This document shows, one piece after another, positions 1,205 to 26,431 of a stretch of DNA of 64,000 nucleotides. The stretch's first letter is position 1. Every line of letters starts with the position of its first letter. A program made the translations under genes and the position numbers. The DNA comes from Chloroflexota bacterium (lineage in GTDB: Bacteria > Chloroflexota > Dehalococcoidia > DSTF01 > RBG-16-68-14). The notes below the pieces were generated by a model, which saw only the letters and a program-made list of their open reading frames with translations, did no database searches and was not told where the DNA came from. The stretch is from NCBI GenBank assembly GCA_003228685.1, contig QIFC01000118.1, forward strand, positions 16,578 through 80,577. The letters are read 5' to 3'.

Positions 1205-2374
1205 TTAGCTGACTGGGGCGATCACGCCCGCCGATACGCGAAACACAGCCTGCGGCGTGATGTCCTCGGTGAAGCGATCGGCGTCCGCGGACGTGATCAG
1301 CAGCTGGTCCCACTCGCCTAAGGACGTGAGTACGGCTCGACGCCGCTCCTCGTCTAGCTCCGAGAGCACGTCATCCAGCAGCAACACAGGAACGTCGCCC
1401 CTGGTATCCGCCATGAAACGCGCTTCCGCCAGCCGCAGCGCGAGCGCGGCAGTGCGCTGCTGGCCGCGTGACGCGAACGCCGCCGCCGAGACCCCATCCA
1501 GCTCGATTGACACGTCGTCGCGGTGCGGGCCCGTCAGCGTCATGCCAGCGCCGATATCACGCGGCCGGTTGCGCGCGAGCGCGCTCTGCATGGCCGGCTT
1601 CAGGCCGGCGGCCTCTTGGCGGCAACGCGAGGCGTCCCAGCCTTCCAGCCGTGGCAGATACTCGCAGGCCAGCTCCTCAAGGCCACCGCTAAGGTTGCGA
1701 TGGGCAGACGCGGCGTGCGATGCCAACGCCTGCATCGCAGTTGCGCGCATGTCGATCAGCGTCGCACCGTGGCCACTCAACTCCAAGTCCCAGAAGTCGA
1801 GTTCGTTCGCGCCGGCCTCGCCAGATTGGATCCGCTTAAGCAGCGCGTTCCGCTGTGTAACGACCTTCCCATAGCGTTGGAGCGCCTGTGTGTAGGCAGA
1901 ATCGATCTGGCTGAGCATGACGTCCAGGTAGCGCCGGCGCGTCGAAGGCGAACCGCTGATCAACTCCATGTCATCGGTGGTGAAGAGCACGGCCATCAGT
2001 TGGCCAACGACGTCCGCCTGGCGCTTGGCGACGCCGTTCACGCGCAACCGTTTGGAGGCGGGCACGCGCGCCCTCTCTCCGGGACGCGGCCTGCCCACCA
2101 GAACGATCTCCAGCTCCAGCGGGCCGTCGTTGCGCTCCACGTCCGCGGTCACGCGCGCGACGGGCTGCGCCTCGTCGAGCGCGTCCCAGTGGATCAGGCC
2201 GCCGTCGGTCGGTACGCGGTCGGAGCGGGTCGTGGCGAGAAGAAAGGCCGCCTCCAATAGATTGCTCTTGCCCTGGGCGTTATCGCCCAAGATGAGCGTG
2301 CATCCCCGCGGCAGCTCCAGTTCGAGCGATCGATAGTTGCGGAAGTGAGAGAGCGTTAACCGCCGAATCCACAT
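1205..2374 (-). CDS. recF: DNA replication and repair protein RecF
   Basis: N-terminus MWIRRLTLSHFRNYRSLELELPRGCTLILGDNAQGKSNLLEA (Walker A GxxGxGKS/N) and C-terminal LLLDDVLSELD signature typical of RecF. 389 aa. Confidence 0.93.
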   Translation of the reverse strand: MWIRRLTLSHFRNYRSLELELPRGCTLILGDNAQGKSNLLEAAFLLATTRSDRVPTDGGLIHWDALDEAQPVARVTADVERNDGPLELEIVLVGRPRPGERARVPASKRLRVNGVAKRQADVVGQLMAVLFTTDDMELISGSPSTRRRYLDVMLSQIDSAYTQALQRYGKVVTQRNALLKRIQSGEAGANELDFWDLELSGHGATLIDMRATAMQALASHAASAHRNLSGGLEELACEYLPRLEGWDASRCRQEAAGLKPAMQSALARNRPRDIGAGMTLTGPHRDDVSIELDGVSAAAFASRGQQRTAALALRLAEARFMADTRGDVPVLLLDDVLSELDEERRRAVLTSLGEWDQLLITSADADRFTEDITPQAVFRVSAGVIAPVS

Positions 2375-2408: not shown

Positions 2409-3275
2409 TCACGCGGTAGCGCCGCTATCGGGTTCGACGAAGCGCAGGCGAAGCTTGTCCGCCTCCGGACGTGATTCCTCGATCAATAGCTGCTCGCCGG
2501 TCGCATCGCGAAGACCGTCGACGATCTGGCGAGCGGCCAAGGGCGCGTTCAGCACGACCTCCAGAGAGGCCTCGCCGTTCTTGTACGCGACAACCGAAGC
2601 GCCCTCAGTCTGGGGCAGCCCGCTCAGGGCCCGTTGGACGTCCATGAGGCCCTGGAAGCCCGGCACCGCGGCGAGGACAACGCCCATCGGCGACGCGCCA
2701 GGCCGGAACTGTGGCTCAACCGGGGTGGCCGGCGCTGGAGCAGGCGCAGCGTGCGCCGCAGCGGGCGCTGGCTGGACCGGCTGCGTACTCGCCTCGCGGA
2801 GCGCGCGAGTGATCTCGTTCATGCGGCCTTCGACGCGGCCCGCCGTTTCGGCGAGATCGGACGCGCCGTCAGAGAGCCGCTCTGCCTGCGTCGTGAGACG
2901 GTCCAGGGTACCCTCGAGGCGCTCGAACATCTCGTTGATCGTGCGCTTGAGATCGGCCACCTCCAGGGAGGCGTCGGCCCCGGACGCCACGTCCGCCTTG
3001 GCCGATTCCTGTACCTGGTTCTCAAGCGCCTCGAGCATTGACTCGAAGTGTTCCAGGGTCTGCTCAAGGTTCTCGGCCGCTTCGGCCGCGGAGTGGTCGG
3101 GCGCGGGCATCATCGATGTCGATGCCTGTCCTTCGTTCTTGGTCGTAGGCTTGGTAGTCACAACACTACCTCCGAATAACTGGCTGGCGACGCGCAGGAG
3201 TAGGCTACCGATCGAGCCACGCCGCCCGCGTGAACTCGAACGCGCCTCTACGTCCGAACCCGTCTTCTCCACCAT
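2409..3275 (-). CDS. Hypothetical protein, coiled-coil/acidic middle region
   Basis: 288-aa ORF with coding-like composition that fills the gap between recF and a divergent promoter. I recognise no family. Confidence 0.5.
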   Translation of the reverse strand: MVEKTGSDVEARSSSRGRRGSIGSLLLRVASQLFGGSVVTTKPTTKNEGQASTSMMPAPDHSAAEAAENLEQTLEHFESMLEALENQVQESAKADVASGADASLEVADLKRTINEMFERLEGTLDRLTTQAERLSDGASDLAETAGRVEGRMNEITRALREASTQPVQPAPAAAHAAPAPAPATPVEPQFRPGASPMGVVLAAVPGFQGLMDVQRALSGLPQTEGASVVAYKNGEASLEVVLNAPLAARQIVDGLRDATGEQLLIEESRPEADKLRLRFVEPDSGATA

Positions 3276-3468
3276 CGTGCATCAATCGTGGTCATGGGTG
3301 CGGAATCTCGTACGTCTAATGGAGTATCGGCAGCCACGCCACACCCCTATAACGAGACTGACTCGCCATTATAACAGAGCCCCGGCAACGGTAGCGCAGC
3401 TTGACACGCCCGACGCCCTTATCTACCATAGGCAACTCCAGTTCGTGTACAGAGAGGATCCACCGCCC

Positions 3469-3945
3469 ATGGACGAGCTAGCTAAGAAGACCGCGCTCCG
3501 AATGATCCCGTACGGGCTCTACGTTCTCGGCTCGAACGATGGCGACGGACTGAGTGCCGCGGCGATCAACTGGGTTACTCAGGCATCGTTCCAGCCGCCT
3601 CTGCTCGCCATGGGCGTCAAGGCCGATAGCACGATCTTCGAGCACCTGCGACCAAGGAGCGAATTCGCGCTGAGCGTCCTCGGCACCGGGCAGAAGGACA
3701 TTGCGTTTGCGTTTTTCAAGCCCACGGAACAGCACGGCAAGACCATCAACGGCTACGCGTACGAGACTCAAGAGAGCGGTGCGCCCATTCTCGCCGACGC
3801 GCCGGCCTGGGTAGAGGGGCGCGTGACCGACATCGTCGAGCGCGGCGATCACGCCGTGGTCGTCGCGGAGGTGTTCAACGCGGGAGTGCGGCGCGAATCC
3901 GCGGTCCTGACCTTGGCCGAGTGCGGGGTTAACTACGGCGGCTAG
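3469..3945 (+). CDS. Flavin reductase-like domain protein
   Basis: ATG at 3469 within ORF 2455..3945. MDELAKKTALRMIPYGLYVLGSNDGDGLSAAAINWVTQASFQPPLLAMGV... matches the flavin reductase (FMN-binding split barrel) pattern. The upstream part of the long ORF is antisense to gene 2409..3275. Confidence 0.8.
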   Translation: MDELAKKTALRMIPYGLYVLGSNDGDGLSAAAINWVTQASFQPPLLAMGVKADSTIFEHLRPRSEFALSVLGTGQKDIAFAFFKPTEQHGKTINGYAYETQESGAPILADAPAWVEGRVTDIVERGDHAVVVAEVFNAGVRRESAVLTLAECGVNYGG

Positions 3946-4072
3946 CGAGCCAGCAGTGCTAAGCCCAGACTAACAACCCTGCATGCCAAAGCCGGCTCGA
4001 TCCTCTATAATGCGTCGGGTTCACGAATCCAAAGAACGACGCTGTTAGCATTACCGAACCGAGGTCTGCCTT

Positions 4073-5053
4073 ATGCATCATCCACTCCACACGCCCATCT
4101 GCGACTACTTCGGCATTGAGTATCCGATCTTCCTGGCCGGCATGGGCGGCGTCTCCGCGTCCGCGCTGACGGCGGCAGTTTCGAATGCGGGCGGCCTCGG
4201 CATCCTGGGCGGCGCCACCATGGACGACGCGCTCCTCCGGGAAGAGATCAAGAAGACCAAGGAGCTGACGGACAAGCCGTTCGCCGTCGATCTGCTGGCG
4301 CCGATCCCTGACATGATCCGGTCCCAGATCGAGATCATCTTTGAAGAGGACATCCGCATCTTCGTCGCCGGGCTCGCCGTACCGGCCGAGTTCATCGAAG
4401 AGATGCACGCACGCGACATGAAGGTCGTCGTGATGTGCGGCAAGGTGCGCCACGCTGAGAAGTCGGAGGCAATGGGCGCGGACGTCGTCGCCGCGCAGGG
4501 CACGGAGGCGGGCGGCCACACCGGCGAGATTGGCGGGATGGCGCTGATCCCGCAGACGGTGGAGGCGGTCAACATCCCGGTGCTTGCGGCGGGCGGCTTG
4601 GTGAACGGCCGCGGGCTGATCGCCGCGCTCGCGCTGGGCGCGCAGGGCGCCATCTTCGGGACGCGTTTCATCGCGACTCCGGAGGCGCAGGCCGCGCCGG
4701 GCTACCAGGAAGCGCTCGTCGCCGCGAAGGACGACTCGACGGTACGTTCGCGCTCCTACACCGGCAAGCCGGCGCGCGCCCTCCGCACAGAGCGGACGGA
4801 TGAGTGGGAGGCGAAGGCCGACGAAATCCAAGCGTTCCCGATGCAGGCAGGCATCTCAGCCCGCGAAGGCGTGATGGACTACATGGGGCGCGGCGATCAC
4901 TTCGATCCGAACCGCATGTTCATGCCGTCCGGGCAAGGGGTAGGCCTGATCCACGAAATGAAGCCCGCCGCTGAGATCTTCGCCGACATCGTCAGTGAAG
5001 CAGAAGAGACGCTACTCAAGCTGACCAAGCTGGCCGCACCCGCGAAGGTGTAG
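4073..5053 (+). CDS. Nitronate monooxygenase / FabK-like FMN oxidoreductase
   Basis: ICDYFGIEYPIFLAGMGGVSASALTAAVSNAGGLGILGG and ...AQGTEAGGHTG... are NMO (2-nitropropane dioxygenase) family hallmarks. Confidence 0.85.
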   Translation: MHHPLHTPICDYFGIEYPIFLAGMGGVSASALTAAVSNAGGLGILGGATMDDALLREEIKKTKELTDKPFAVDLLAPIPDMIRSQIEIIFEEDIRIFVAGLAVPAEFIEEMHARDMKVVVMCGKVRHAEKSEAMGADVVAAQGTEAGGHTGEIGGMALIPQTVEAVNIPVLAAGGLVNGRGLIAALALGAQGAIFGTRFIATPEAQAAPGYQEALVAAKDDSTVRSRSYTGKPARALRTERTDEWEAKADEIQAFPMQAGISAREGVMDYMGRGDHFDPNRMFMPSGQGVGLIHEMKPAAEIFADIVSEAEETLLKLTKLAAPAKV

Positions 5054-5085
5054 CGAAGCGCAGTCTGACGAGAAGGACCGCGTCA

Positions 5086-5457
5086 GTGAAGTTTATGATC
5101 TCCTTCACGCATACCACCGGCGAGTGGGCGGACCGCGTGCCGCGCTGGGCAGAGCTTTCCGACGAAGAAAAGCAGGGCGTTGCCGGCCACCTCAAGGAAG
5201 CCATGGACGCGCTGGAGACCGAGCAGGGAACCACGATGGTCTTCTTCGATGCGCCCGAGAACGCGCGCACGGTGCGCATGCACAAGGACGGTTCGCTCGA
5301 TGTCGAGGAGAACGCGCTCATGAACGGTGCTGAGTTCGTGGGAGGCTACTTCATCATCGAGGTCGACTCCATGGACGAAGCGTTGGACTGGGCGAAGCGG
5401 ACCCGCTGGCTCGTGGGCTCAAACGAAGTCCGCGAGATCAAGGAGCTGCAGCTTTAG
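5086..5457 (+). CDS. YciI-like (YCII-related) domain protein
   Basis: 123 aa. The C-terminal ...GGYFIIEVDSMDEALDWAKR... is typical of the YCII family. GTG start. Confidence 0.65.
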   Translation: MKFMISFTHTTGEWADRVPRWAELSDEEKQGVAGHLKEAMDALETEQGTTMVFFDAPENARTVRMHKDGSLDVEENALMNGAEFVGGYFIIEVDSMDEALDWAKRTRWLVGSNEVREIKELQL

Positions 5458-5479
5458 AACCCGCGCTCGGGAGGCATAG

Positions 5480-6646
5480 ATGGACTTTTCTTTCAGCCCA
5501 GAGGACGAGGCGTTCCGCGAGGAGGTGCGCGCGTTCATCCGCGAGGAGCTGGGCGACCGCGACATCATCCGGGGCGGCAACCTCGATGCCTGGAAAGCGT
5601 ACCGGCAATTCATCCAGAAGCTTGCCGGCCGCGGCTGGCTAACGCTCGCGTGGCCGGAGGAGTGGGGCGGCCAGGGCGCCAGCCACATCAAGCAACTCGT
5701 ATACAACGAAGAGATGGCGCTGGCCGAAGCGCCCGCGACCGACTTGGGCAGCGACCGCGTGGGGCCGACGATCATGCTCTACGGGACCGACGATCAGAAG
5801 GAGAAGTTCCTACCGCCCATCGTGAAGGGCGAAGTGGTCTGGTGCCAGGGCTTCTCAGAGCCGGGCTCCGGCTCCGACCTCGCGTCGCTCCAGACCAAGG
5901 CGGCGCTGGACGGCGACGAGTTCGTGATCAACGGCAGCAAGATCTGGACCAGCCTGGCCCACTTCGCGGAGTGGATCATCCTGCTCGTGCGCACGGACCA
6001 GGACGCGCCGAAGCACAGGGGCATCTCCTACCTTCTCGTCGACATGAAGACGCCGGGCGTGGAAGTGCGGCCGCTGGTCGACATGCTGGGGCGCCATCAG
6101 TTCAACGAAGTCTTCTTCGACAACGTCCGTGTACCGCGCGACGCCCTCGTGGGCGAGATGAACCGCGGTTGGTACGTCGCCACCGCCACGCTCGATTTCG
6201 AGCGCTCGGGCATCGGGCGCGTGATCGGCAGCCGCAAGACATACGAACAGCTCGTCACGTACACGCGTGAGACGACGCGAGGCGGCACGGCGCTGATCGA
6301 GCACCCCCTGGTGCGAGCCAAACTGGCCGACTTGCGGATCGAGTTCGAGGTCGGCAAGAACCTCTCGTACCGCGTCGCGTGGATGCAGAACCAGAACCTG
6401 ATACCGAACTACGAGGCCTCCGTTTCGAAGATGTTCGGGTCGGAGCTATCGCAACGGCTCGCGAACGCCGGCATCGAGATCATGGGCCTGGGCGGCCAAC
6501 TCGCTCCGGGCTCCCCTTGGGCGCCGCTGGCCGGCAAGTTCGAGACGCTCTACCTCAACTCCGCCGCGCTTACCGTCGCGGCCGGCACGAGCGAGATCCA
6601 GCGCAACATCATCGCAGGCCGCGGGCTAGGCCTGCCGCGAGACTAG
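5480..6646 (+). CDS. Acyl-CoA dehydrogenase family protein
   Basis: 388 aa. WCQGFSEPGSGSDLASLQT..., ...INGSKIWTS... and C-terminal ...TSEIQRNIIA... are ACAD motifs. Confidence 0.9.
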   Translation: MDFSFSPEDEAFREEVRAFIREELGDRDIIRGGNLDAWKAYRQFIQKLAGRGWLTLAWPEEWGGQGASHIKQLVYNEEMALAEAPATDLGSDRVGPTIMLYGTDDQKEKFLPPIVKGEVVWCQGFSEPGSGSDLASLQTKAALDGDEFVINGSKIWTSLAHFAEWIILLVRTDQDAPKHRGISYLLVDMKTPGVEVRPLVDMLGRHQFNEVFFDNVRVPRDALVGEMNRGWYVATATLDFERSGIGRVIGSRKTYEQLVTYTRETTRGGTALIEHPLVRAKLADLRIEFEVGKNLSYRVAWMQNQNLIPNYEASVSKMFGSELSQRLANAGIEIMGLGGQLAPGSPWAPLAGKFETLYLNSAALTVAAGTSEIQRNIIAGRGLGLPRD

Positions 6647-6654
6647 GCCTACCA

Positions 6655-7206
6655 ACGAACGCCGACGCAGTCCGATACCGACTCGCGATCGCCTCTGACG
6701 CCCCAGCCATCGCGCACCTCCACGCCGAAAGCTGGCGCGTGGCGTACCGCGGGATGTTCCCTGACGACTTCTTCGACAACGACGCCGACGACGACCGCGC
6801 CAGGGTATGGCAGGAGCGATTCGCGGATCCGGACCGCGAGACGACAACGATCACCGTCCTCGCCGAGGGCGGTGGCGAGCTGGCCGGCTTCGCGCACTCG
6901 ATCATCGACGAGGACGCGACGCATGGGACGCTGCTCGATAACCTGCACGTGCGGCTAGACGCGCATCGGCTCGGCATTGGAAGGCGCCTGATGGCCGAGA
7001 CGGCGGAGCGCCTGGCCACACTCGGAAGGTCCACGCTGTACCTATGGGTGCTCGAAGACAACGCCACAGCGCGCGCATTCTACAAAGCCCTCCGCGGCGA
7101 GGAGTGCGGACGCGGGTCGGTCGCCGACGGACCTTCCAATCCATCGCTTCCAGCAGTTCCCAGCCTGCGGATCTGCTGGCCCTCGCTCGACCGCCTGGCT
7201 CTCTAG
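6655..7206 (+). CDS. GNAT family N-acetyltransferase (start codon not identifiable)
   Basis: VRYRLAIASDAPAIAHLHAESW...LHVRLDAHRLGIGRRLMAE...LWVLEDNATARAFYKALRG shows the GNAT fold pattern. There is no in-frame ATG/GTG/TTG between the ACAD stop (6644-6646) and the conserved N-terminal strand, so the 5' coordinate is approximate. Confidence 0.6.
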   Translation, partial: TNADAVRYRLAIASDAPAIAHLHAESWRVAYRGMFPDDFFDNDADDDRARVWQERFADPDRETTTITVLAEGGGELAGFAHSIIDEDATHGTLLDNLHVRLDAHRLGIGRRLMAETAERLATLGRSTLYLWVLEDNATARAFYKALRGEECGRGSVADGPSNPSLPAVPSLRICWPSLDRLAL

Positions 7207-9536: not shown

Positions 9537-9827
9537 ATGCGCGAGTTCTATGTGTACATCATGGCCAATCGCAGCAAGACGCTATACGTCGGCATGACGA
9601 ACAACCTGGAACGACGCGTGTCTGAGCACAGAGCAGGGCTATCGGCGTTCACCGCGAAGTATGCGATGAAGAAGCTTGTGTACCATGAGGCAACCAATGA
9701 TCCCCGGTCGGCGATTGCTCGCGAGAAGGAATTCAAAGGATGGCTTCGGAGCAAGAAGATCGCGTTGATCGAATCGGCCAATCCCGAGTGGGACGATCTG
9801 AGCGAGGCATGGGGACTTCGGCGATGA
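9537..9827 (+). CDS. GIY-YIG nuclease family protein (small, 96 aa)
   Basis: MREFYVYIMANRSKTLYVGMTNNLERRVSEHR... contains the GIY-(x10)-YVG motif and a conserved Arg/Glu. GC is lower than in the neighbouring genes. Confidence 0.85.
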   Translation: MREFYVYIMANRSKTLYVGMTNNLERRVSEHRAGLSAFTAKYAMKKLVYHEATNDPRSAIAREKEFKGWLRSKKIALIESANPEWDDLSEAWGLRR

Positions 9828-9947: not shown

Positions 9948-10202
9948 ATGCGTGAGTTCTATGTGTACGTCATGGCGAATCGCAGCAAGACGCTATACGT
10001 CGGCATGACGAACAGCCTGGAACGACGCGTGGCTGAGCACAGAGCAGGGCTATCGGCGTTCACCGCGAAGTATGCGATGAAGAAGCTTGTGTACCATCAG
10101 GCAACCAATAATCCCCGGTCGGCGATTGCTCGCGAGAAGGAATTCAAAGGATGGCTTCGGAGCAAGAAGATCGCGTTGATCGAATCGGCCAATCCCGAGT
10201 GA
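9948..10202 (+). CDS. GIY-YIG nuclease family protein, second tandem copy, shortened by a TGG->TGA change
   Basis: High nucleotide identity by eye (only scattered substitutions) to 9537..9827, at a 411-bp offset. It ends ...ESANPE* where copy 1 reads ...ESANPEWDDLSEAWGLRR. Confidence 0.75.
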   Translation: MREFYVYVMANRSKTLYVGMTNSLERRVAEHRAGLSAFTAKYAMKKLVYHQATNNPRSAIAREKEFKGWLRSKKIALIESANPE

Positions 10203-11513: not shown

Positions 11514-12344
11514 TTAGGCTCGCTGGGCCGTCAGCAGCGAGCGCCGCAGCAGGCCAGCCTTAATCGACGCGAGAATCACTTCGCCCTCTACGATCTTTCC
11601 CTTCAGTGTGTCCTCGCCCATCGCCTGCGCCAGCTCGTCGAAGCGGCGGCGCCTGCCTTCCAGCCAGCCTTGCGCGGTCATTCGATACTGCTTCGTCACG
11701 TCGGTCTCATGAACATCGGTGAAGCCTGCCGACTCCAGCATCTCCGACGGCGAGCGCCTGCGCGTTGTGGCGGACGGCCAGAACTTCAGAATGCGACGAT
11801 AATCGGCGTCGCTCAGGTCATGCGGCGCGTAGATCGTGTAGCAGGCGATGCGGCCTTCTGGCTTGAGAACTCGGTGACAGGCTCTCAGCACGGAGAGCTT
11901 CGCGGGCACTCAGCAGAGGACGTCGCTGTGCACCAGCGCATCGAACGAGCGCGGGCGGAACGGCAGGGTCGAGCCGCCCGCGGCGATACCTTCGCTCCTC
12001 TTGTGCACACGGTCCTTGCGCGAACGCCGCCCGGCCTCATCTAGCGCGACGAGCGGCAAGTCTGCGAGCACTACCTGGCAGCCGCTGCGCTTGGAGAGAT
12101 AGAGGCCGGGCCAACCTCGGCCGGCGCCGAGGTCGAGGAGCCGCTTACTCCGCGTCAGGTCCAGATGATCTACGAGCGCGTCCGCTTGTTCTCGCGTCGT
12201 ATAGCTGTTGGCGCCATAGTCGCCGCCAATCACTTCGCGTTCTAGGGCGACTGTCGCTCGGTTCTGACCAGTCCCGTAGCGTTCTTCGAAGCGCTGCTTG
12301 GCGTCAGCCGTTGAGCGAATATTGCTCTTGCGCGGCGACGCCAT
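11514..12344 (-). CDS. Class I SAM-dependent methyltransferase with in-frame TGA (candidate selenocysteine, Cys-Sec dyad)
   Basis: ORFs 11910..12344 and 11514..11909 share one frame and are separated only by TGA (11912..11910): ...LLDLGAGRGWPGL (motif I)...FDALVHSDVLC-TGA-VPAKLSVLRACHRVLKPEGRI (motif post-II/III). A hairpin starts 11 nt after the TGA. Confidence 0.55.
11879..11900 (-). promoter_or_regulatory. Candidate bacterial SECIS hairpin for the TGA at 11912..11910
   Basis: mRNA UGA GUGCCCGCGAA GCUCUC CGUGCU GAGAGC. A perfect 6-bp stem (11898-11893 pairs with 11886-11881) and a 6-nt loop containing GU. The loop G is about 21 nt from the U of UGA. Confidence 0.5.
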
Positions 12345-12348
12345 CCCG

Positions 12349-13131
12349 TCAGCCCTTCGTGGCGGCCAGTGTTACGCCGCGGGTGTCGAACTCCTTGGCG
12401 TCGGATTCATGCTTAGAGCCGGAAAACACGTCCACCTGCTTGCCCCAGCGAAGGCCTGTGAAGTTTGCGTGGCTCACAATCCACTCCCACTCTGCTTCCA
12501 GCAGAGCACCGGCTATTCAGCCGGACCAGAGATCGATGTCGTCTTTCGCGTCTTGGTCGACGGGCTTCTGAACGACGATGTCCGCGATCTGGAAGCGACC
12601 GCCCGGCTTGATGATGCGATAGACCTCTTGCATGACGGTCATCTTGTCCGGGGTGAGATTGATGACGCCGTTGCTGATCACGACGTCGATCGAACCATCA
12701 TCCGCGGGCAGTTCCTCCGCGTAGCCGAGCTTGGCGTCGATGTTGGTGAGGCCGAGCGTCTCAGCGCCCAGACGCGTCTTCTCCAGCATCGCCTCCGTCA
12801 TGTCGAGAGCGATCACGTGGCCCGTGGGACCGACCTGCTTCGCGGCTTGCAGCGTGTCGAAGCCTGCCCCGCAGCCGATGTCGAGCACTGCCTCGCCCTC
12901 ATGTAGCTTGCCCAAGAGGAACGGGTTGCCCGTGCCGGCGAACGATTCTATAGTCGACTCCGGCAGCGCATTCACGTCCGCCTCTGGATACTCCAGCATC
13001 GCTGCCAGCGGGCGGCCTGTGTGGAAATGAAAGCCTTGTTCGGGCTTCTTCGCCACGTCGCAGTATTTCGCCTCGATCTGGTCGCGCAGTTGTTCGCGGT
13101 CTACCTTCGATGCGACGACTTCTAACACCAT
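12349..13131 (-). CDS. ArsM-like SAM-dependent methyltransferase with in-frame TGA at the conserved C-terminal Cys position (candidate selenoprotein)
   Basis: Listed ORF 12517..13131 ends ...DDIDLWSG-TGA. The same frame continues IAGALLEAEWEWIVSHANFTGLRWGKQVDVFSGSKHESDAKEFDTRGVTLAATKG* (stop 12351..12349), 4 nt before the next gene's ATG. LDIGCGAGFD is motif I. LWxG[C/U]IAGA is the ArsM-type motif. Confidence 0.65.
12488..12508 (-). promoter_or_regulatory. Candidate bacterial SECIS hairpin for the TGA at 12519..12517
   Basis: mRNA UGA AUAGCCGG UG CUCUGCU GGA AGCAGAG UG. A 7-bp perfect stem (12506-12500 pairs with 12496-12490) plus two G.U pairs. The apical GG is about 20 nt from the U of UGA. 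Confidence 0.55.
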
Positions 13132-13151: not shown

Positions 13152-14522
13152 TCAGACGGCCGGCGCGGACTCTTGCAGGTAGCCTGCTTCTTCCCAGACT
13201 CCGAACCCACCGTCCAGATTCACAAGCGTCTTGAACCCGGCACGCTCAAGGATCGAGACCCCGCTGGACGACCGCTCTCCATGTCCGCAGTATGCAACGA
13301 TGGGCCGGTCTCTCGGCAGCTCTTCGACTCGCGCCTCCAGTTGCCCGAGCGGAATGCTGATAGCCTCCGCGACGTGACCGGCCGCGAACTCATCAGGCTC
13401 GCGGACGTCGAGGGCAAGCGCGCCATCGAGCAGGGCCTTCCGCGCCTCCGTGGCACCGGCGAGCGGAATCGTCGCGAGAGGCTTGTCAGCCTTCGCCCAC
13501 GCTTCAATCCCACCCTCCAGCCAGCCCGCAAACGTTTCATAGCCCACCAGCAGCGACTCTTCCTCGATACGCTCGAGCGGTTCGTCATCACGGACGAACA
13601 GGAGCGGCGCCCCCTCGGGTGCAAGCCATCCCAGCCAGATGGCATAGCTATCGCGAAACTCGTTGCTCAGTGAGCCAGGAATGTGCCCGGCCGCGTACGC
13701 CTCGGTGGCCCGCACGTCGACAACAAACGCCGCTTGCCTGGCGTAATCGAACGCGACGGGCATGAGCGCCGGCGCCGGCGGAATCTCCTCGCGCAGTCGC
13801 GGACCAGCCTGGTTGATCGGGCGCATCCGAGAGAAGTAGGCCGGTATGGCTGGGAACGTGGTCGGGAACCAGCGCACAAACTCATGCTCGTCTTCAGTCT
13901 GCAGCGCGGCGTTGTGCTGGCGCTCGAGGCCCAGCGTGGAGGTGCGCTCGGCACCCGGCACCGCGGAACAGAACGAGCCGCCGCCGTGGGTCGGATAGAG
14001 CAGCGTCTCGTCCGGCAGCGACGAAAACGCCGTCTTCAGCGTGCGGAACAGCCAGTGTGTCTGGCGTTCGGTCATCTCGGGCGCTATCAGGTCGGTCCTT
14101 GCCGCGCCGCCGACGATGAGCGAGCCGCCGCTAAATAGTGCGGGAGGCTCCTGACCCGCGCGGAGAGCGTAGCTCATATGCTCAGGCGTATGACCGGGAG
14201 ACGCAACGGCTTCGACTTCGACGCCGCCCAGTCCGAACAGCTCACCGGCCACGACTGGCCTGTGCGGAAAGCGAACCGCTGCCTCCTTTGGAGAGTAGAT
14301 CTCCGCGCCCGAGACTTGCGCAACGTCGCGCGCGCCAGAGACGAAGTCGGCGTGCAGGTGCGTCTCCAGCACCGTCCCGATATGCCAGCCGCGATCTTCC
14401 GCGGCGCGCACATACTGGTCAACGCTCCGCAAAGGGTCGATGAGCACAGCTTCATTGGTCCCTACCACCATCAGGTAAGCGCTGTTGCCTAACCCTTCGT
14501 GGACAAAAGGAATCACATTCAT
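13152..14522 (-). CDS. MBL-fold metallo-hydrolase (persulfide-dioxygenase-like) fused to two rhodanese domains
   Basis: The N-terminal ...TVLETHLHADFVSGA... is the HxHxD(H) MBL motif. The C-terminal rhodanese has active-site loop IVAYCGHGERSS. The middle rhodanese-like domain lacks the Cys. Architecture resembles Blh/CstB. Confidence 0.85.
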   Translation of the reverse strand: MNVIPFVHEGLGNSAYLMVVGTNEAVLIDPLRSVDQYVRAAEDRGWHIGTVLETHLHADFVSGARDVAQVSGAEIYSPKEAAVRFPHRPVVAGELFGLGGVEVEAVASPGHTPEHMSYALRAGQEPPALFSGGSLIVGGAARTDLIAPEMTERQTHWLFRTLKTAFSSLPDETLLYPTHGGGSFCSAVPGAERTSTLGLERQHNAALQTEDEHEFVRWFPTTFPAIPAYFSRMRPINQAGPRLREEIPPAPALMPVAFDYARQAAFVVDVRATEAYAAGHIPGSLSNEFRDSYAIWLGWLAPEGAPLLFVRDDEPLERIEEESLLVGYETFAGWLEGGIEAWAKADKPLATIPLAGATEARKALLDGALALDVREPDEFAAGHVAEAISIPLGQLEARVEELPRDRPIVAYCGHGERSSSGVSILERAGFKTLVNLDGGFGVWEEAGYLQESAPAV

Positions 14523-15787
14523 GCCAATACCTCCTTCTGCATCGGCGCTGCTGCCGGGCGTGCCCGGCCCAGTGTCACCGTTGCTATGATAGCCGACGCG
14601 GCAGTCAGCGCCGCAACCGCATAGATCGCTTGCTCAAAGCCCAGCAGGTCGGCCACGGCTCCCGCGCCGAGCGCCCCGGCGACGAACCCACCATCACGCC
14701 AAAAGCGATAGACGCCGACGGACGCGGCGCGCTCTTCAGGGTGCACTTCATCGCCGATAGCGGCGATCAGCGTTGGGTAGACGAGCGCGGTCCCCACGCC
14801 GAGCAACACGACCGCCACCAGCCAGCTACCGAACGAGCCGGCGATCGCGACCATCGCGATGGCGACGGCCTGCAGCAGCAGGCCACCAACAATAGCAGGC
14901 TTTCGTCCCACAATGTCGCTCGCCCAGCCGGTACCGAGCTGCAGGACGCCCCAGACGAAGGGATACGCGGCTGCCAGGATGCCGATCTGACCGAGGTCCA
15001 GTCCGCGACTGAAGAAGAACAGCGGAAGGATCCCCCAAGCCAGCCCGTCGTTGAGGTTATTCACGAAGCCCCCTTGCGACGCGCCGAACAAGCGCGGGTT
15101 GCGCCATGTGACGTCGGCAAAGCTTCGCGCAAGCGAACGCGGAGGCGGCCCGGCCGCGTGTCCATCCGCCTCCAGTGCGACGAAGGGCCGCGTGTCGTGT
15201 GCCAGAGCCGTGAGCGCCAGCCCGCCCGCGACGAGAGCGATCCCCAGGTAGAACGGCTCTGGCCGCAGTCCGTACTGCTCCGCGATCACGCCGGTGAGAT
15301 AGGCAGCGGCAGCAACAGCGACATAGCCGGCCGCTTCGTTCAGCCCAACCACGAATCCACGCTGCCTGGGGCCGGCCAGGTCCATTTTCATATTGACGGT
15401 CATGGACCAGGCGAGGCCTTGGTTTACGCCAAGCAGCAAATTCGCGCCGATCACCCAGCCCCAATTCGGCGCCCAGATGAGCATCAGGGGAACAGGGGCG
15501 CCCACGAGCCATCCGGCAATCAGGACCTTGCGCCTGGTCAACTTATCGGAGAGGGTGCCGGCGAAGAGGTTGGTGATTGCCTTGGCGAGCCCGAACGTCG
15601 CGATGAACGAGACGACGGCCGTCGTCGACGAGATGCCGAACTCGGCCTTGCCCAAGAGCGGAACGACAGAGCGCTCCATGCCGATCATGCCGCCGACGAA
15701 GGCGTTGACCGCCACCAGCAGCGCGATCTGCCGCCAGTTTTCGCGCACGCCGAGGGCGATCGATTTGCCTGTCTGTCGCACGGCCAT
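14519..15787 (-). CDS. MFS transporter
   Basis: 422 aa, about 12 predicted hydrophobic helices, with an MFS loop motif ...GTLSDKLTRRKV.... Its stop overlaps the start of the downstream MBL-rhodanese gene (ATGA). Confidence 0.85.
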   Translation of the reverse strand: MAVRQTGKSIALGVRENWRQIALLVAVNAFVGGMIGMERSVVPLLGKAEFGISSTTAVVSFIATFGLAKAITNLFAGTLSDKLTRRKVLIAGWLVGAPVPLMLIWAPNWGWVIGANLLLGVNQGLAWSMTVNMKMDLAGPRQRGFVVGLNEAAGYVAVAAAAYLTGVIAEQYGLRPEPFYLGIALVAGGLALTALAHDTRPFVALEADGHAAGPPPRSLARSFADVTWRNPRLFGASQGGFVNNLNDGLAWGILPLFFFSRGLDLGQIGILAAAYPFVWGVLQLGTGWASDIVGRKPAIVGGLLLQAVAIAMVAIAGSFGSWLVAVVLLGVGTALVYPTLIAAIGDEVHPEERAASVGVYRFWRDGGFVAGALGAGAVADLLGFEQAIYAVAALTAASAIIATVTLGRARPAAAPMQKEVLA

Positions 15788-15802: not shown

Positions 15803-16318
15803 TTAGGCGGCCTGCTCTTCGGCGGAACCGAACACCGTCCGGAGCGCCAGTTCGCGGTCACCGAAACAGTACTGGTAGATGAATGACGGGATGCAGAAGT
15901 GGGTGGTGCCAACAATGTATGCCACTGTCGTGAGCAGCGCCCCGAGCGCGTAACCCAGCGGAGCAACGCCCAGGTCGAACGACAACGCGATCGCGACTAC
16001 CCAGGGCGTTGCCAGCACACAAGCGAAGCGCGTAGGCGGACCGTTTAGCGGCAGTTTTCCCGTGCCGGTCAGGTGGCGCAGCCCATAGTTGTAGACGAGA
16101 TCGAGGGGATGGACCCTGAAGATCGCACCGGCTGCCGCTATCGGGACCATCGCCCAGAGCAGCGGTGTGAACGCGAATGCCGTCGCGATGCCGACGAGTG
16201 AACCGCAGAGAAGAAACGTCGTCCTGAACCAGGGCACCATCCTCAGGAATCCGGGATCGCTCGAAACGTTGTAACCCCGCACCTCCAGCCACGTTTGCAG
16301 TCTTGGTGAAAGAGCCAT
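15803..16318 (-). CDS. DUF4395-like membrane protein
   Basis: 171 aa, four hydrophobic segments. ...PTRFACVLATPWVVAI... and ...HFCIPSFIYQYCFG... resemble the DUF4395 family from memory. First gene of the minus-strand operon. Confidence 0.6.
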   Translation of the reverse strand: MALSPRLQTWLEVRGYNVSSDPGFLRMVPWFRTTFLLCGSLVGIATAFAFTPLLWAMVPIAAAGAIFRVHPLDLVYNYGLRHLTGTGKLPLNGPPTRFACVLATPWVVAIALSFDLGVAPLGYALGALLTTVAYIVGTTHFCIPSFIYQYCFGDRELALRTVFGSAEEQAA

Positions 16319-16443: not shown

Positions 16444-17115
16444 ATGGCGCATCGAGAGTTCAAGCAGAAGATCTACGCGGAATTCGCCCGCATCGGGAAC
16501 GCGCTTGGCAGCGCGCGACGGCTGGAACTGCTGGACATCCTCGCCCAAGGACCGCGCCACGTAGAGGCGCTCGCTGCCGAGACCGATATGACGGTCGCGA
16601 ACGTCTCGCAGCATCTGCAGGTCTTGCGGCAGGCCCGCCTTGTAGAGGCGGAACGCGAGGGCACGAAGGCGCTCTACCGCCTCGCCGACAGGCACGTTCT
16701 CGATCTGTGGCTCACGCTGCGGTCGGTCGCGGAAGAACGCCTCGCCGACCTCGGCCAACTCCGGCGCGACGTCGACGTCTACGATGAGGAGTCGCCGGTG
16801 CCGAGGGACGAGCTAGAGCGACTGCTCTTGGACCGGGACGCGGTGCTGATCGACACTCGCCCGAGCCGTGAGTACGAGCACGGCCATCTTCCGGCGTCGA
16901 TCTCGATGCCCATGGAAGAGCTGCCAGAGCGGCTCCACGAGCTGCCGAGAGACCGGCCGATCATCGCCTACTGTCGTGGCGACTACTGTCTCTTCGCGGA
17001 CGAGGCCGTCACGCTCCTGCGCGAGAAGGGCTTCGAGGCCCACCGCCTAGACGGCGGCTGGCCGGAGTGGTGGGCGGAAGACCGGGCGGTCGTGGGTGAT
17101 CCCGAGATAACCTGA
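16444..17115 (+). CDS. ArsR/SmtB-family transcriptional regulator fused to a rhodanese domain
   Basis: The N-terminal ...LGSARRLELLDILAQGPRHVEALAAETDMTVANVSQHLQVLRQARLVEAEREG... is an ArsR wHTH. The C-terminal rhodanese has IIAYCRGDYCLFADEA. Confidence 0.85.
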   Translation: MAHREFKQKIYAEFARIGNALGSARRLELLDILAQGPRHVEALAAETDMTVANVSQHLQVLRQARLVEAEREGTKALYRLADRHVLDLWLTLRSVAEERLADLGQLRRDVDVYDEESPVPRDELERLLLDRDAVLIDTRPSREYEHGHLPASISMPMEELPERLHELPRDRPIIAYCRGDYCLFADEAVTLLREKGFEAHRLDGGWPEWWAEDRAVVGDPEIT

Positions 17116-25610: not shown

Positions 25611-26431
25611 TGAAGCAAGAGAACCATGCGACCCACCACGCACATGAGCGTGCTGAGCGTTTCAGGACCCTGCATGAAGGGCCGGAAATCCTTCTACTGC
25701 CCGGTGTATGGGATGTCGTCAGCGCGCGCATTTTCGCTGCCGAGGGGTTTCCCGCCCTCGGCACGACCAGCGCAGGCATCTGCTGGAGCGTTGGACGAGA
25801 GCACGGCTGGCCGGCGTTCCTGGAGGCAAGCAAACGCATCGCGGACTCCGTGCCAATCCCGGTGTCCTTCGATATCGAGTCCGGGTTCTCAGACCAGCTT
25901 GAAGGTATCGTCGGACACGTATCGCAAGTGATCGACGCCGGTGCTTGCGGGATCAATATCGAAGACGGTTTCGCCGACGGCACCCTAGTTGATCCGCAAC
26001 GTCACGTCGAGAGGCTGGAAGCCATCCGAACTCTCTGCAAAGACCGGGACTATCCGCTCTTCATCAACGCGCGTACGGATGTGTTTCTCGGGGGGTCAGA
26101 AGACCTGGGCGAAGCGATCGATCGCTGCAATCGCTATGTCGATGCCGGCGCTGACGGCGTCTTTGTGCCAGGTCTCATGAACGGGTCAGACATCGCTGAG
26201 ATAGCGAAAGAGGTGGCAGTCCCTGTGAACATCTACGCGCTTCCCGGAGTGCCATCGCCAGCGATGCTTCTACAGATGGGCGCCAGACGCATCAGTCTAG
26301 GATGTGGGCCCCAGCAATCGGCGCTCGCTCACGTCCGCTCGCTCGCCCGGTCACTGAAGGATCATGGCGACTACCGAGCGTTCACTGATAACTGGATGTC
26401 CTATGAGGACGCGGAACAGCTTTGTAGCTGA
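25610..26431 (+). CDS. Isocitrate lyase/PEP mutase superfamily protein
   Basis: RFRTLHEGPEILLLPGVWDVVSARIFAAEGFPALGTTSAG... and ...GINIEDG... match the PEP mutase/2-methylisocitrate lyase-like pattern. Confidence 0.8.
   Translation: MKQENHATHHAHERAERFRTLHEGPEILLLPGVWDVVSARIFAAEGFPALGTTSAGICWSVGREHGWPAFLEASKRIADSVPIPVSFDIESGFSDQLEGIVGHVSQVIDAGACGINIEDGFADGTLVDPQRHVERLEAIRTLCKDRDYPLFINARTDVFLGGSEDLGEAIDRCNRYVDAGADGVFVPGLMNGSDIAEIAKEVAVPVNIYALPGVPSPAMLLQMGARRISLGCGPQQSALAHVRSLARSLKDHGDYRAFTDNWMSYEDAEQLCS

Follow-up and report, generated by a model that had tools for sequence, protein, structure and literature searches.

Structure of a methyltransferase gene with an internal TGA

A gene for a class I S-adenosylmethionine (SAM)-dependent methyltransferase with one in-frame TGA was found on the minus strand of a 64,000-nt stretch of DNA from a Chloroflexota bacterium of the class Dehalococcoidia (assembly GCA_003228685.1, contig QIFC01000118.1, positions 16,578 to 80,577). 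The whole stretch is referred to as the window, and the gene as the CU-methyltransferase; its features and neighbors are listed in Table 1. The frame ran from the ATG at 12344 to the TAA at 11516..11514 and consisted of 276 codons plus the stop. The single internal stop, TGA (11912..11910), was codon 145, and the codon before it was TGC (Cys144). A first-pass annotation, made from the sequence alone, had reported that the open reading frames (ORFs) 11910..12344 and 11514..11909 lie in one frame with only the TGA between them, and this was true by sequence and translation. The residues around the TGA (FDALVHSDVLC, the stop, then VPAKLSVLRACHRVLKPEGRI) and motif I (LLDLGAGRGWPGLYL) also matched its description. 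Public gene callers gave two separate proteins of 144 and 131 aa for the halves of the gene. On the evidence below, 11514..12344 is very probably one gene, whose UGA codon 145 is decoded as selenocysteine (Sec) in a 276-aa enzyme.

Pfam analysis showed that the domains Methyltransf_11, Methyltransf_25, Methyltransf_23, Methyltransf_12 and Methyltransf_31 covered residues 63-212 and bridged the TGA; Methyltransf_11 scored 56 bits against a cut-off of 21 bits. TGA terminated 19 of the 59 ORFs of the window that passed a filter on third-position GC content (GC3), including both internal methyltransferase TGAs, the second of which lies in the adjacent ArsM-like gene. The two genes immediately upstream ended in TGA as an ordinary stop. 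As TGA is the ordinary stop of many genes across the window, the code is not reassigned, and global UGA reassignment was ruled out. A scan of the window for gene pairs split by TGA gave the two methyltransferases as the only credible cases; a match at 26429 was merely two adjacent genes sharing a frame.

Homologs of the read-through product

The read-through product was searched against about 5.8 billion proteins. The 120 homologs returned were single chains of about 270 aa, and the best of them, from a Dehalococcoidia metagenome-assembled genome (MAG), had 50% identity. The halves are thus not normally separate genes, a point on which the first-pass annotation had made its reading depend. At the column of the TGA, 119 of the 120 homologs had Cys, and the preceding residue was likewise Cys in 119 of 120. 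The motif around this Cys-Cys dyad was F-D-A-V-V-H-T-D-V-L-C-C-L-x-P-K. Alignment of 61 sequences showed that His139, Cys144, Cys145 and Lys149 were invariant, and in the family alignment G73, G75, G77, W78, P79 and G80 of motif I and D95 were invariant too. The protein had the features of a class I SAM methyltransferase, namely the GxGxG motif, an acidic residue ending beta-2, and a Rossmann-like fold.

Distribution of the TGA form

DNA collections were scanned for the pattern F-D-A-x-[VI]-H-x-D-V-L-C followed by TGA. The pattern was present in at least 120 contigs of the JGI metagenome collection, mostly from soils, and in 89 loci of the GTDB representatives (one genome per species), which covered at least six phyla. 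Among the 80 of these 89 loci that were listed, about 44 belonged to Actinomycetota, 13 to Gemmatimonadota, 11 to Acidobacteriota, 7 to Chloroflexota, and one each to Dormibacterota and KSB1. The Actinomycetota matches included a cultured carrier, Pseudonocardia adelaidensis JCM 18302. In all loci whose sequence extended far enough (more than 200), about 130 homologous codons followed the TGA in an open frame.

When the N-terminal half was used as a protein query, nearly all of the 120 best-scoring matches listed were ORFs of 133-145 aa, and 102 of them stopped exactly at D-V-L-C. These ORFs carried no name in the public databases or were named as a truncated "class I SAM-dependent methyltransferase".

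The identical 831-nt gene, including the TGA, was found on an independently assembled Logan contig (L210). The nearest relative, a Chloroflexota MAG (L157), shared 84% DNA identity over both methyltransferase genes and kept both TGAs. Between L157 and the window gene, the codons after the TGA differed by 29 synonymous and 35 non-synonymous changes; the non-synonymous changes are fewer than expected under neutral drift, which counts against an artifact. A tblastn search against the PLSDB plasmids gave no match.

The chromosome OZ250139.1 (Vicinamibacterales) carried two paralogous Sec-form copies (L180 and L182) with 98% identity over about 800 nt, and both kept the TGA and the hairpin described below. 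A tblastn match to the methyltransferase (L132, 6616..7401; 38.7% identity) had Thr at the Sec column, with an internal stop and a gap; it may be a second, degenerate copy or a misalignment of the Sec-form gene.

Hairpin downstream of the TGA

The first-pass annotation had described a perfect 6-bp stem 11 nt past the UGA. This stem was present, it enclosed a 6-nt loop, and it belonged to the minimum free energy (MFE) fold. Its parts were the stem strand GCUCUC (11898..11893), the loop CGUGCU (11892..11887) and the stem strand GAGAGC (11886..11881), with a gap of 11 nt (11909..11899) to the UGA. The energy of the hairpin alone was -7.8 kcal/mol. The loop G, said to be about 21 nt from the UGA, was the 19th nucleotide after it, so the earlier figure was acceptable.

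Published constraints on the bacterial Sec insertion sequence (bSECIS) are a stem of 4-16 bp, a loop of 3-9 nt with a G among its first two nucleotides, a distance of 16-37 nt between UGA and loop, and an MFE of at most -7.5 kcal/mol (PMC13188914). The hairpin satisfied them: its loop lay 17 nt from the UGA and had G-U as second and third nucleotides.

Codon statistics were calculated for 188 unique Sec-form regions. The codons of the hairpin were almost fixed: AAG in 178 of 188, CTC in 185 of 188, TCC in 173 of the 176 with Ser, GTG in 184 of 185, and then CTG or TTG. The Arg codon was the rare AGA in 153 of 186, yet at three other Arg positions of these genes AGA did not rank in the top five codons. 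Elsewhere in the Sec-form genes, invariant residues used the full range of synonymous codons. All six stem pairs were formed in 140 of 175 unique sequences, and in an alignment of 101 sequences 94.9% of the stem cells were paired. A compensatory change from U:A to G:C (TCC to GCC together with AGA to CGA) occurred in 10 of the 101 sequences, and none of 500 shuffles reached this. The seven Cys-form genes compared at the DNA level had similar residues in other codons (for example CTG TCG GTG CTG CGG), mostly without a hairpin, and among the Cys forms KLSVLR was identical only in P0001/L211. Judged by codon use and pairing, the hairpin is selected at the RNA level in the Sec forms. It is these comparative data, not the fold energy, that make the hairpin more than a chance structure. 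As a bSECIS, GCUCUC-CGUGCU-GAGAGC would recruit SelB-GTP-Sec-tRNA(Sec), so that Sec would be inserted without termination.

One Cys-form gene (L217, 3001..3819; protein P0086) had a possible hairpin, GUUCGC-CGUCCU-GCGAAC, at the SECIS position. This may be the remnant of a SECIS from before a switch from Sec to Cys, or it may be due to chance.

Variants of the dyad

About 13 of the 120 best N-terminal-half matches listed stopped one residue sooner, at HTDTL or HSDML, and the DNA of three of them (L220, L221 and L222) was inspected. In L221 (Logan ERR14790936, 1348..1353), HTDTL was followed by TGA-TGC, a U-C dyad. L220 (Logan SRR32799304, 2220..2225) and L222 (JGI Ga0075324_1001027, 1434..1439) had TGA-TGA, a U-U dyad, and L222 was 67% identical to the window protein. 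The three loci kept the same hairpin, 14 nt after the first UGA, and the downstream frame was open. L220 and L221 were syntenic with the Cys-Cys form P0001.

From these sequences, the dyad is the hallmark of the family: Cys-Cys in the Cys forms, and C-U, U-C or U-U in the Sec forms. The U-C and U-U variants, two of them syntenic with P0001, indicate that both positions of the dyad are interchangeable sulfur or selenium sites. In the orthologs, one hairpin appears to serve UGAs at spacings of both 11 and 14 nt, tandem UGAs included. A literature search on adjacent or tandem Sec codons gave nothing relevant.

Predicted fold and position of the dyad

The AF2 model of P0001, a Cys-form homolog with 50% identity, had a pLDDT of 94.9 and showed a methyltransferase of the Rossmann type, capped by helices at its C-terminus. 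In this model the dyad lay in the loop directly after beta-4. The nearest structures in Foldseek and profile searches were TleD, the plant and Plasmodium phosphoethanolamine N-methyltransferases (PMTs), RebM, AtmM and MitM. TM-scores were 0.72-0.80 with E-values around 1e-20 for the methyltransferases in Foldseek, and the profile matches ranged from 1e-22 to 1e-27.

In the profile alignment, the segment D-V-L-C-C-l-r-p-K was matched to D-T-I-L-H-I-Q-D-K of AtPMT2, so that residue 145 corresponded to the His, which in turn aligned with His129 of PvPMT. His129 of PvPMT is in a putative catalytic dyad, 4.8 A from the SAM methyl group (PMC4357015). The first-pass annotation had placed the Sec in a substrate-facing loop reading LxH(V/I)P in many methyltransferases. 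This placement is supported by the alignment of residue 145 with the active-site His, which lies so near the methyl group. The Cys144-Sec145 dyad would therefore sit in the catalytic loop after beta-4, with Sec145 at the position of the PMT active-site His.

Sec machinery in related loci

ARAGORN analysis of all fetched loci revealed tRNA-Sec genes in two actinobacterial loci, L074 and L190. In L074 (2446..6685) the order was selD, selC-selA-selB, a gap of about 1.1 kb, the CU-methyltransferase and the ArsM-like gene. In L190 (Sporichthyaceae MAG, 2889..6832) it was selB (C-terminal part), the CU-methyltransferase, the Sec ArsM-like gene, a DsrE-like gene, selC and selD. SelA (398 bits), SelB (275 bits) and SelD (395 bits) each scored over the NCBIfam cut-off. 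As the sel clusters immediately adjoin the pair, the arrangement suggests that the two methyltransferases are the principal clients of the Sec system in these two loci.

The first-pass annotation had made the Sec reading depend on this machinery as well. That part was borne out in the orthologs, where sel genes flank the pair, but no Sec machinery was visible in the window, so that the Sec competence of the source genome is deduced from the relatives and from the literature on the class: in BSepDB, Dehalococcoidia rank with the bacteria that are richest in selenoproteins (PMC13326102).

Weighing of the alternative explanations

If the TGA were a nonsense mutation, or an assembly or sequencing error (TGC or TGT to TGA), in a pseudogene, it would fit that the TGA is one substitution from the Cys codons of the homologs and that Sec machinery was not seen in the window. 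This explanation is scarcely credible, as the identical gene was recovered in an independent assembly (L210), the same C-TGA, always followed by an intact frame, recurred in no fewer than 209 other loci from six or more phyla, the synonymous sites of the downstream hairpin were under selection, and the adjacent gene showed the same pattern. Alternatively, termination at the UGA could be real, with a split methyltransferase whose second half is reinitiated at the GTG that directly follows the TGA in the window; the separate listing of the halves by public callers would agree with this. In the Sec-form regions, however, the codon after the TGA was mostly CTG, ATC, ATT or CTC, and GTG was found in only about 14 of 188. 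A split would also break the Rossmann fold between beta-4 and the next helix, at an invariant active-site motif, whereas every Cys form is a single chain. The break is moreover confined to two adjacent Cys codons (C-U, U-C and U-U), as an exchange of Sec and Cys predicts, and a split enzyme is thus highly improbable.

Downstream hairpins in general can stimulate stop-codon read-through. The UGA could accordingly be read without selenium, either by hairpin-stimulated near-cognate insertion of Trp or Cys or by a suppressor tRNA, and it is in favor of such a reading that the Sec machinery of the source genome is known from relatives and not from the window. We consider it very unlikely, because the recoded position is consistently Cys in the homologs, the hairpin fits the bSECIS model including the G-U in the loop, sel genes adjoin the orthologous genes in L074 and L190, and the partner gene is of the ArsM type, a group with recognized Sec forms. 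Insertion of Sec at the TGA, as the first-pass annotation had proposed, is strongly supported by the Cys column, the recurrence of the TGA, the conservation of the hairpin and the linkage to sel genes in the orthologs.

Several observations count against Sec insertion. The energy of the hairpin was ordinary for DNA of 64% GC (z = -1.18; 21 of 200 shuffles were as stable), and -7.8 kcal/mol barely satisfies the limit of -7.5 kcal/mol. The covariation involved one base pair only, a restriction that follows from the near invariance of the element. The DNA comparison with Cys forms comprised seven genes, among them L217, in which a similar hairpin is possible. Within the 64-kb window, no tRNA was found by ARAGORN, no Rfam match reached the gathering threshold, no selA, selB, selC or selD was found, and a six-frame scan for SelB and SelD signatures was empty.

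Gene neighborhood and proposed role

The CU-methyltransferase was the last gene of a minus-strand cluster in the order DUF4395 protein, major facilitator superfamily (MFS) transporter, metallo-beta-lactamase (MBL)-rhodanese fusion, Sec ArsM-like methyltransferase and CU-methyltransferase. The genes for an ArsR-rhodanese protein, which is likely the regulator of the cluster, and for a cupredoxin were divergent from it.

Table 1. Features of the CU-methyltransferase gene and its cluster (window positions)
Feature	Position	Strand	Basis or remark
Recoded coding sequence, class I SAM-dependent methyltransferase, 276 aa, probable Sec at codon 145	11514..12344	-	Frame, Pfam, full-length homologs
In-frame UGA, predicted Sec codon U145	11910..11912	-	Cys in homologs; recurrent TGA
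TGC, Cys144, first residue of the Cys-Cys/Cys-Sec dyad	11913..11915	-	Cys in 119/120 Cys-form homologs
SAM-binding motif I LLDLGAGRGWPGL, residues 68-80	12105..12143	-	Invariant residues, Pfam domains
Predicted bacterial SECIS core hairpin, coding for (K)LSVLR(A)	11881..11898	-	Fold, codon conservation and pairing
ArsM-like SAM methyltransferase with its own in-frame TGA at 12519..12517 (DLWSG-U-IAGA)	12349..13131	-	Upstream partner
Metallo-beta-lactamase (GloB-like N-terminus) and rhodanese/GlpE-like C-terminus fusion	13152..14522	-	Recurs beside the methyltransferase elsewhere
MFS transporter, 4-nt overlap with the next gene	14519..15787	-	Same family near the methyltransferase in 23-33 loci
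DUF4395 membrane protein (PF14340), first gene of the minus-strand cluster	15803..16318	-	
ArsR/SmtB-type helix-turn-helix and rhodanese fusion, divergent	16444..17115	+	NF033788, 75.8 bits (cut-off 55)

The first-pass annotation had noted that the adjacent methyltransferase also has a single in-frame TGA and a hairpin. This was correct: in the ArsM-like gene an 8-bp hairpin lay 9 nt past the TGA, compared with 11 nt in the CU-methyltransferase, and 4 nt lay between the stop of the gene and the start codon of the CU-methyltransferase. The ArsM-like partner was present at 42 of the 163 loci with at least 1 kb of flank. The idea that the paired TGAs were not independent nonsense mutations was borne out by their recurrence; 32 of the 34 alignable partners also had a stop at the Cys column of the partner. 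The partner of the window scored under every NCBIfam ArsM cut-off (214 bits against 263), and it reads VISNGVINL where canonical ArsM presumably has an As-binding Cys. Given these scores and this motif, the ArsM-like partner may not be a true arsenite methyltransferase.

Clustering of the neighbors on GC3-filtered ORFs revealed the MFS transporter, the ArsR-rhodanese protein, the MBL-rhodanese protein, a glyoxalase-like protein and a DsrE-like protein as recurrent neighbors. The ArsR-rhodanese fusion was near the methyltransferase at 17 loci and also near the Cys form L219, around which part of the module was found. The 121-aa DsrE-like protein, with CEGC and CPIC motifs, adjoined the pair in about 11 loci (L190 4110..4475, L205, L035, L017, L187 and others). 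A 1-Cys peroxiredoxin (AhpC/TSA and 1-cysPrx_C) directly adjoined the Sec form of Pseudonocardia adelaidensis (L183, 5292..6185), and likewise the methyltransferase at a Cys-form actinobacterial locus (L213, 5309..5962).

In the proposed mechanism, the dichalcogen dyad would bind or activate a soft, thiophilic methyl acceptor and position it for methyl transfer. Candidate acceptors would be a metalloid (As, Sb, Se or Te) or a reactive sulfur or selenium species. The enzyme would act together with the co-transcribed Sec ArsM-like protein, the MBL-rhodanese protein and the MFS exporter, under the ArsR-rhodanese regulator. That a thiophilic metalloid or a reactive sulfur or selenium species bound at the dyad is the methyl acceptor is possible, though rather doubtful: the substrate proposal was drawn only from the neighborhood and from the chemistry of the Cys/Sec dyad, and the Cys-form neighborhoods were mixed, with purine genes, peroxiredoxin and others.

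Comparison with known selenoproteins and methyltransferases

A 2026 review table of 119 prokaryotic selenoprotein families gives, as methyltransferases, ArsM (UxxG), O6-methylguanine methyltransferase, MduS (CxxU), UXPK-star and ArsM fusions. Neither a C-U class I methyltransferase of the window type nor an adjacent U-U motif was found in this table. NCBIfam release 20 contained no matching model for the window protein. The best match, the DVU_1556 family (NF045667), scored 64.7 bits against a cut-off of 155 bits and was a distant relative only. ArsM (NF008823) scored 33.2 bits against 263, and its conserved Cys residues are at different positions. MduS (NF045649) scored 28.7 bits against 380; MduS, UXPK-star (NF047649) and the ArsM fusions (NF041536 and NF041537) together gave 24-31 bits against cut-offs of 380-575. 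Membership in the PMT/RebM type was likewise rejected: the fold is common to both, but the equivalent of His129 is Cys or Sec, and the preceding residue is Cys.

The Sec-ArsM group (UxxG; fusions NF041536, NF041537 and NF047649) is among the closest in kind, being also composed of class I SAM methyltransferases with Sec in place of a conserved Cys and a hairpin after the UGA. A member of this group sits adjacent to the window gene in the same direction, and the pairing recurs. However, the Sec of ArsM lies C-terminal to the Rossmann core (W-x-G-U-x-x-G-A) without a vicinal dyad, while that of the window protein is in the loop after beta-4, and the structural neighbors of the window protein are PMT, RebM, MitM and TleD, not ArsM. 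MduS is also a Sec protein with a methyltransferase domain that was predicted by comparative genomics; it differs in having CxxU, with two Sec in a model of 338 positions and no C-U dyad after beta-4. PMTs, RebM, AtmM, MitM and TleD are class I methyltransferases of small molecules and carry a helical cap. They share with the window protein the fold and the segment D-x-x-x-[H]-x-x-x-K after beta-4, but the identity is about 21-26%, and their substrates (phosphobases, sugars and indolactams) are unlikely to be shared.

According to Table 1 of PMC13188914, the CU dyad is found in the bacterial selenoproteins HgcA, MerB-like SaoL, SaoC, MbdU, KCU-star and the Csac_0668 2Fe-2S protein. The vicinal Cys-Sec is common to these and to the window protein, and their chemistry is mostly that of soft metals or organometallic compounds. 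They have unrelated folds, and none of those in that table is a SAM methyltransferase.

The first-pass annotation had likened the dyad to the GCUG motif of thioredoxin reductase. In the mammalian enzyme this motif also has Cys next to Sec, and the two are able to join in a selenenylsulfide. It is the tail of a eukaryotic flavoenzyme with a SECIS in the 3' untranslated region and serves as an electron relay, so its likeness to the window dyad would be chemical only. In E. coli fdhF, the SECIS hairpin is part of the coding sequence, begins 11 nt past the UGA and has G-U in the apical loop. The window hairpin resembles it in its place within the coding sequence, the 11-nt spacing and the apical-loop G-U, but has another sequence, a short perfect 6-bp stem and no bulged U. 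The window gene thus belongs to a well-known kind, the bacterial Sec/Cys enzyme families whose SECIS lies inside the ORF, and does not stand for a new principle.

A broader reading is tentative, and we would put it at somewhat less than an even chance. The window gene may belong to a large, uncatalogued and mostly soil-bacterial selenoprotein family (Actinomycetota, Gemmatimonadota, Acidobacteriota and Chloroflexota), in which a catalytic dichalcogen dyad toggles between C-C, C-U, U-C and U-U, the last from two UGAs apparently on one SECIS. Some aerobic soil lineages may keep the Sec machinery in good part on account of this family and its Sec ArsM-like partner, as sel genes adjoin the pair in two loci, and the family may carry out an undescribed methylation of metalloids or of reactive sulfur or selenium species.

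Public annotation splits the gene into two unnamed or truncated ORFs. A widespread and very probably Sec-containing family of mostly soil bacteria is therefore overlooked both in surveys of soil metagenomes and in estimates of terrestrial selenium use.

The CU-methyltransferase would represent a second, structurally distinct type of Sec methyltransferase beside Sec-ArsM. With Sec at the position of a catalytic His near the SAM methyl group, it would be a natural system in which to ask what selenium does in methyl transfer or in the handling of metalloids and chalcogens. Experiments are feasible in a cultured carrier, Pseudonocardia adelaidensis JCM 18302, and the U-C and tandem U-U orthologs offer a direct test of how strict the spacing between UGA and SECIS is in bacteria.

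Other features of the window

Two tandem, near-identical small ORFs (9537..9827 and 9948..10202, plus strand), beginning MREFYVY[IV]MANRSKTLYVGMTN, lay about 120 nt apart. They resemble GIY-YIG-type proteins and may have arisen by local duplication or belong to a mobile element present in repeats.

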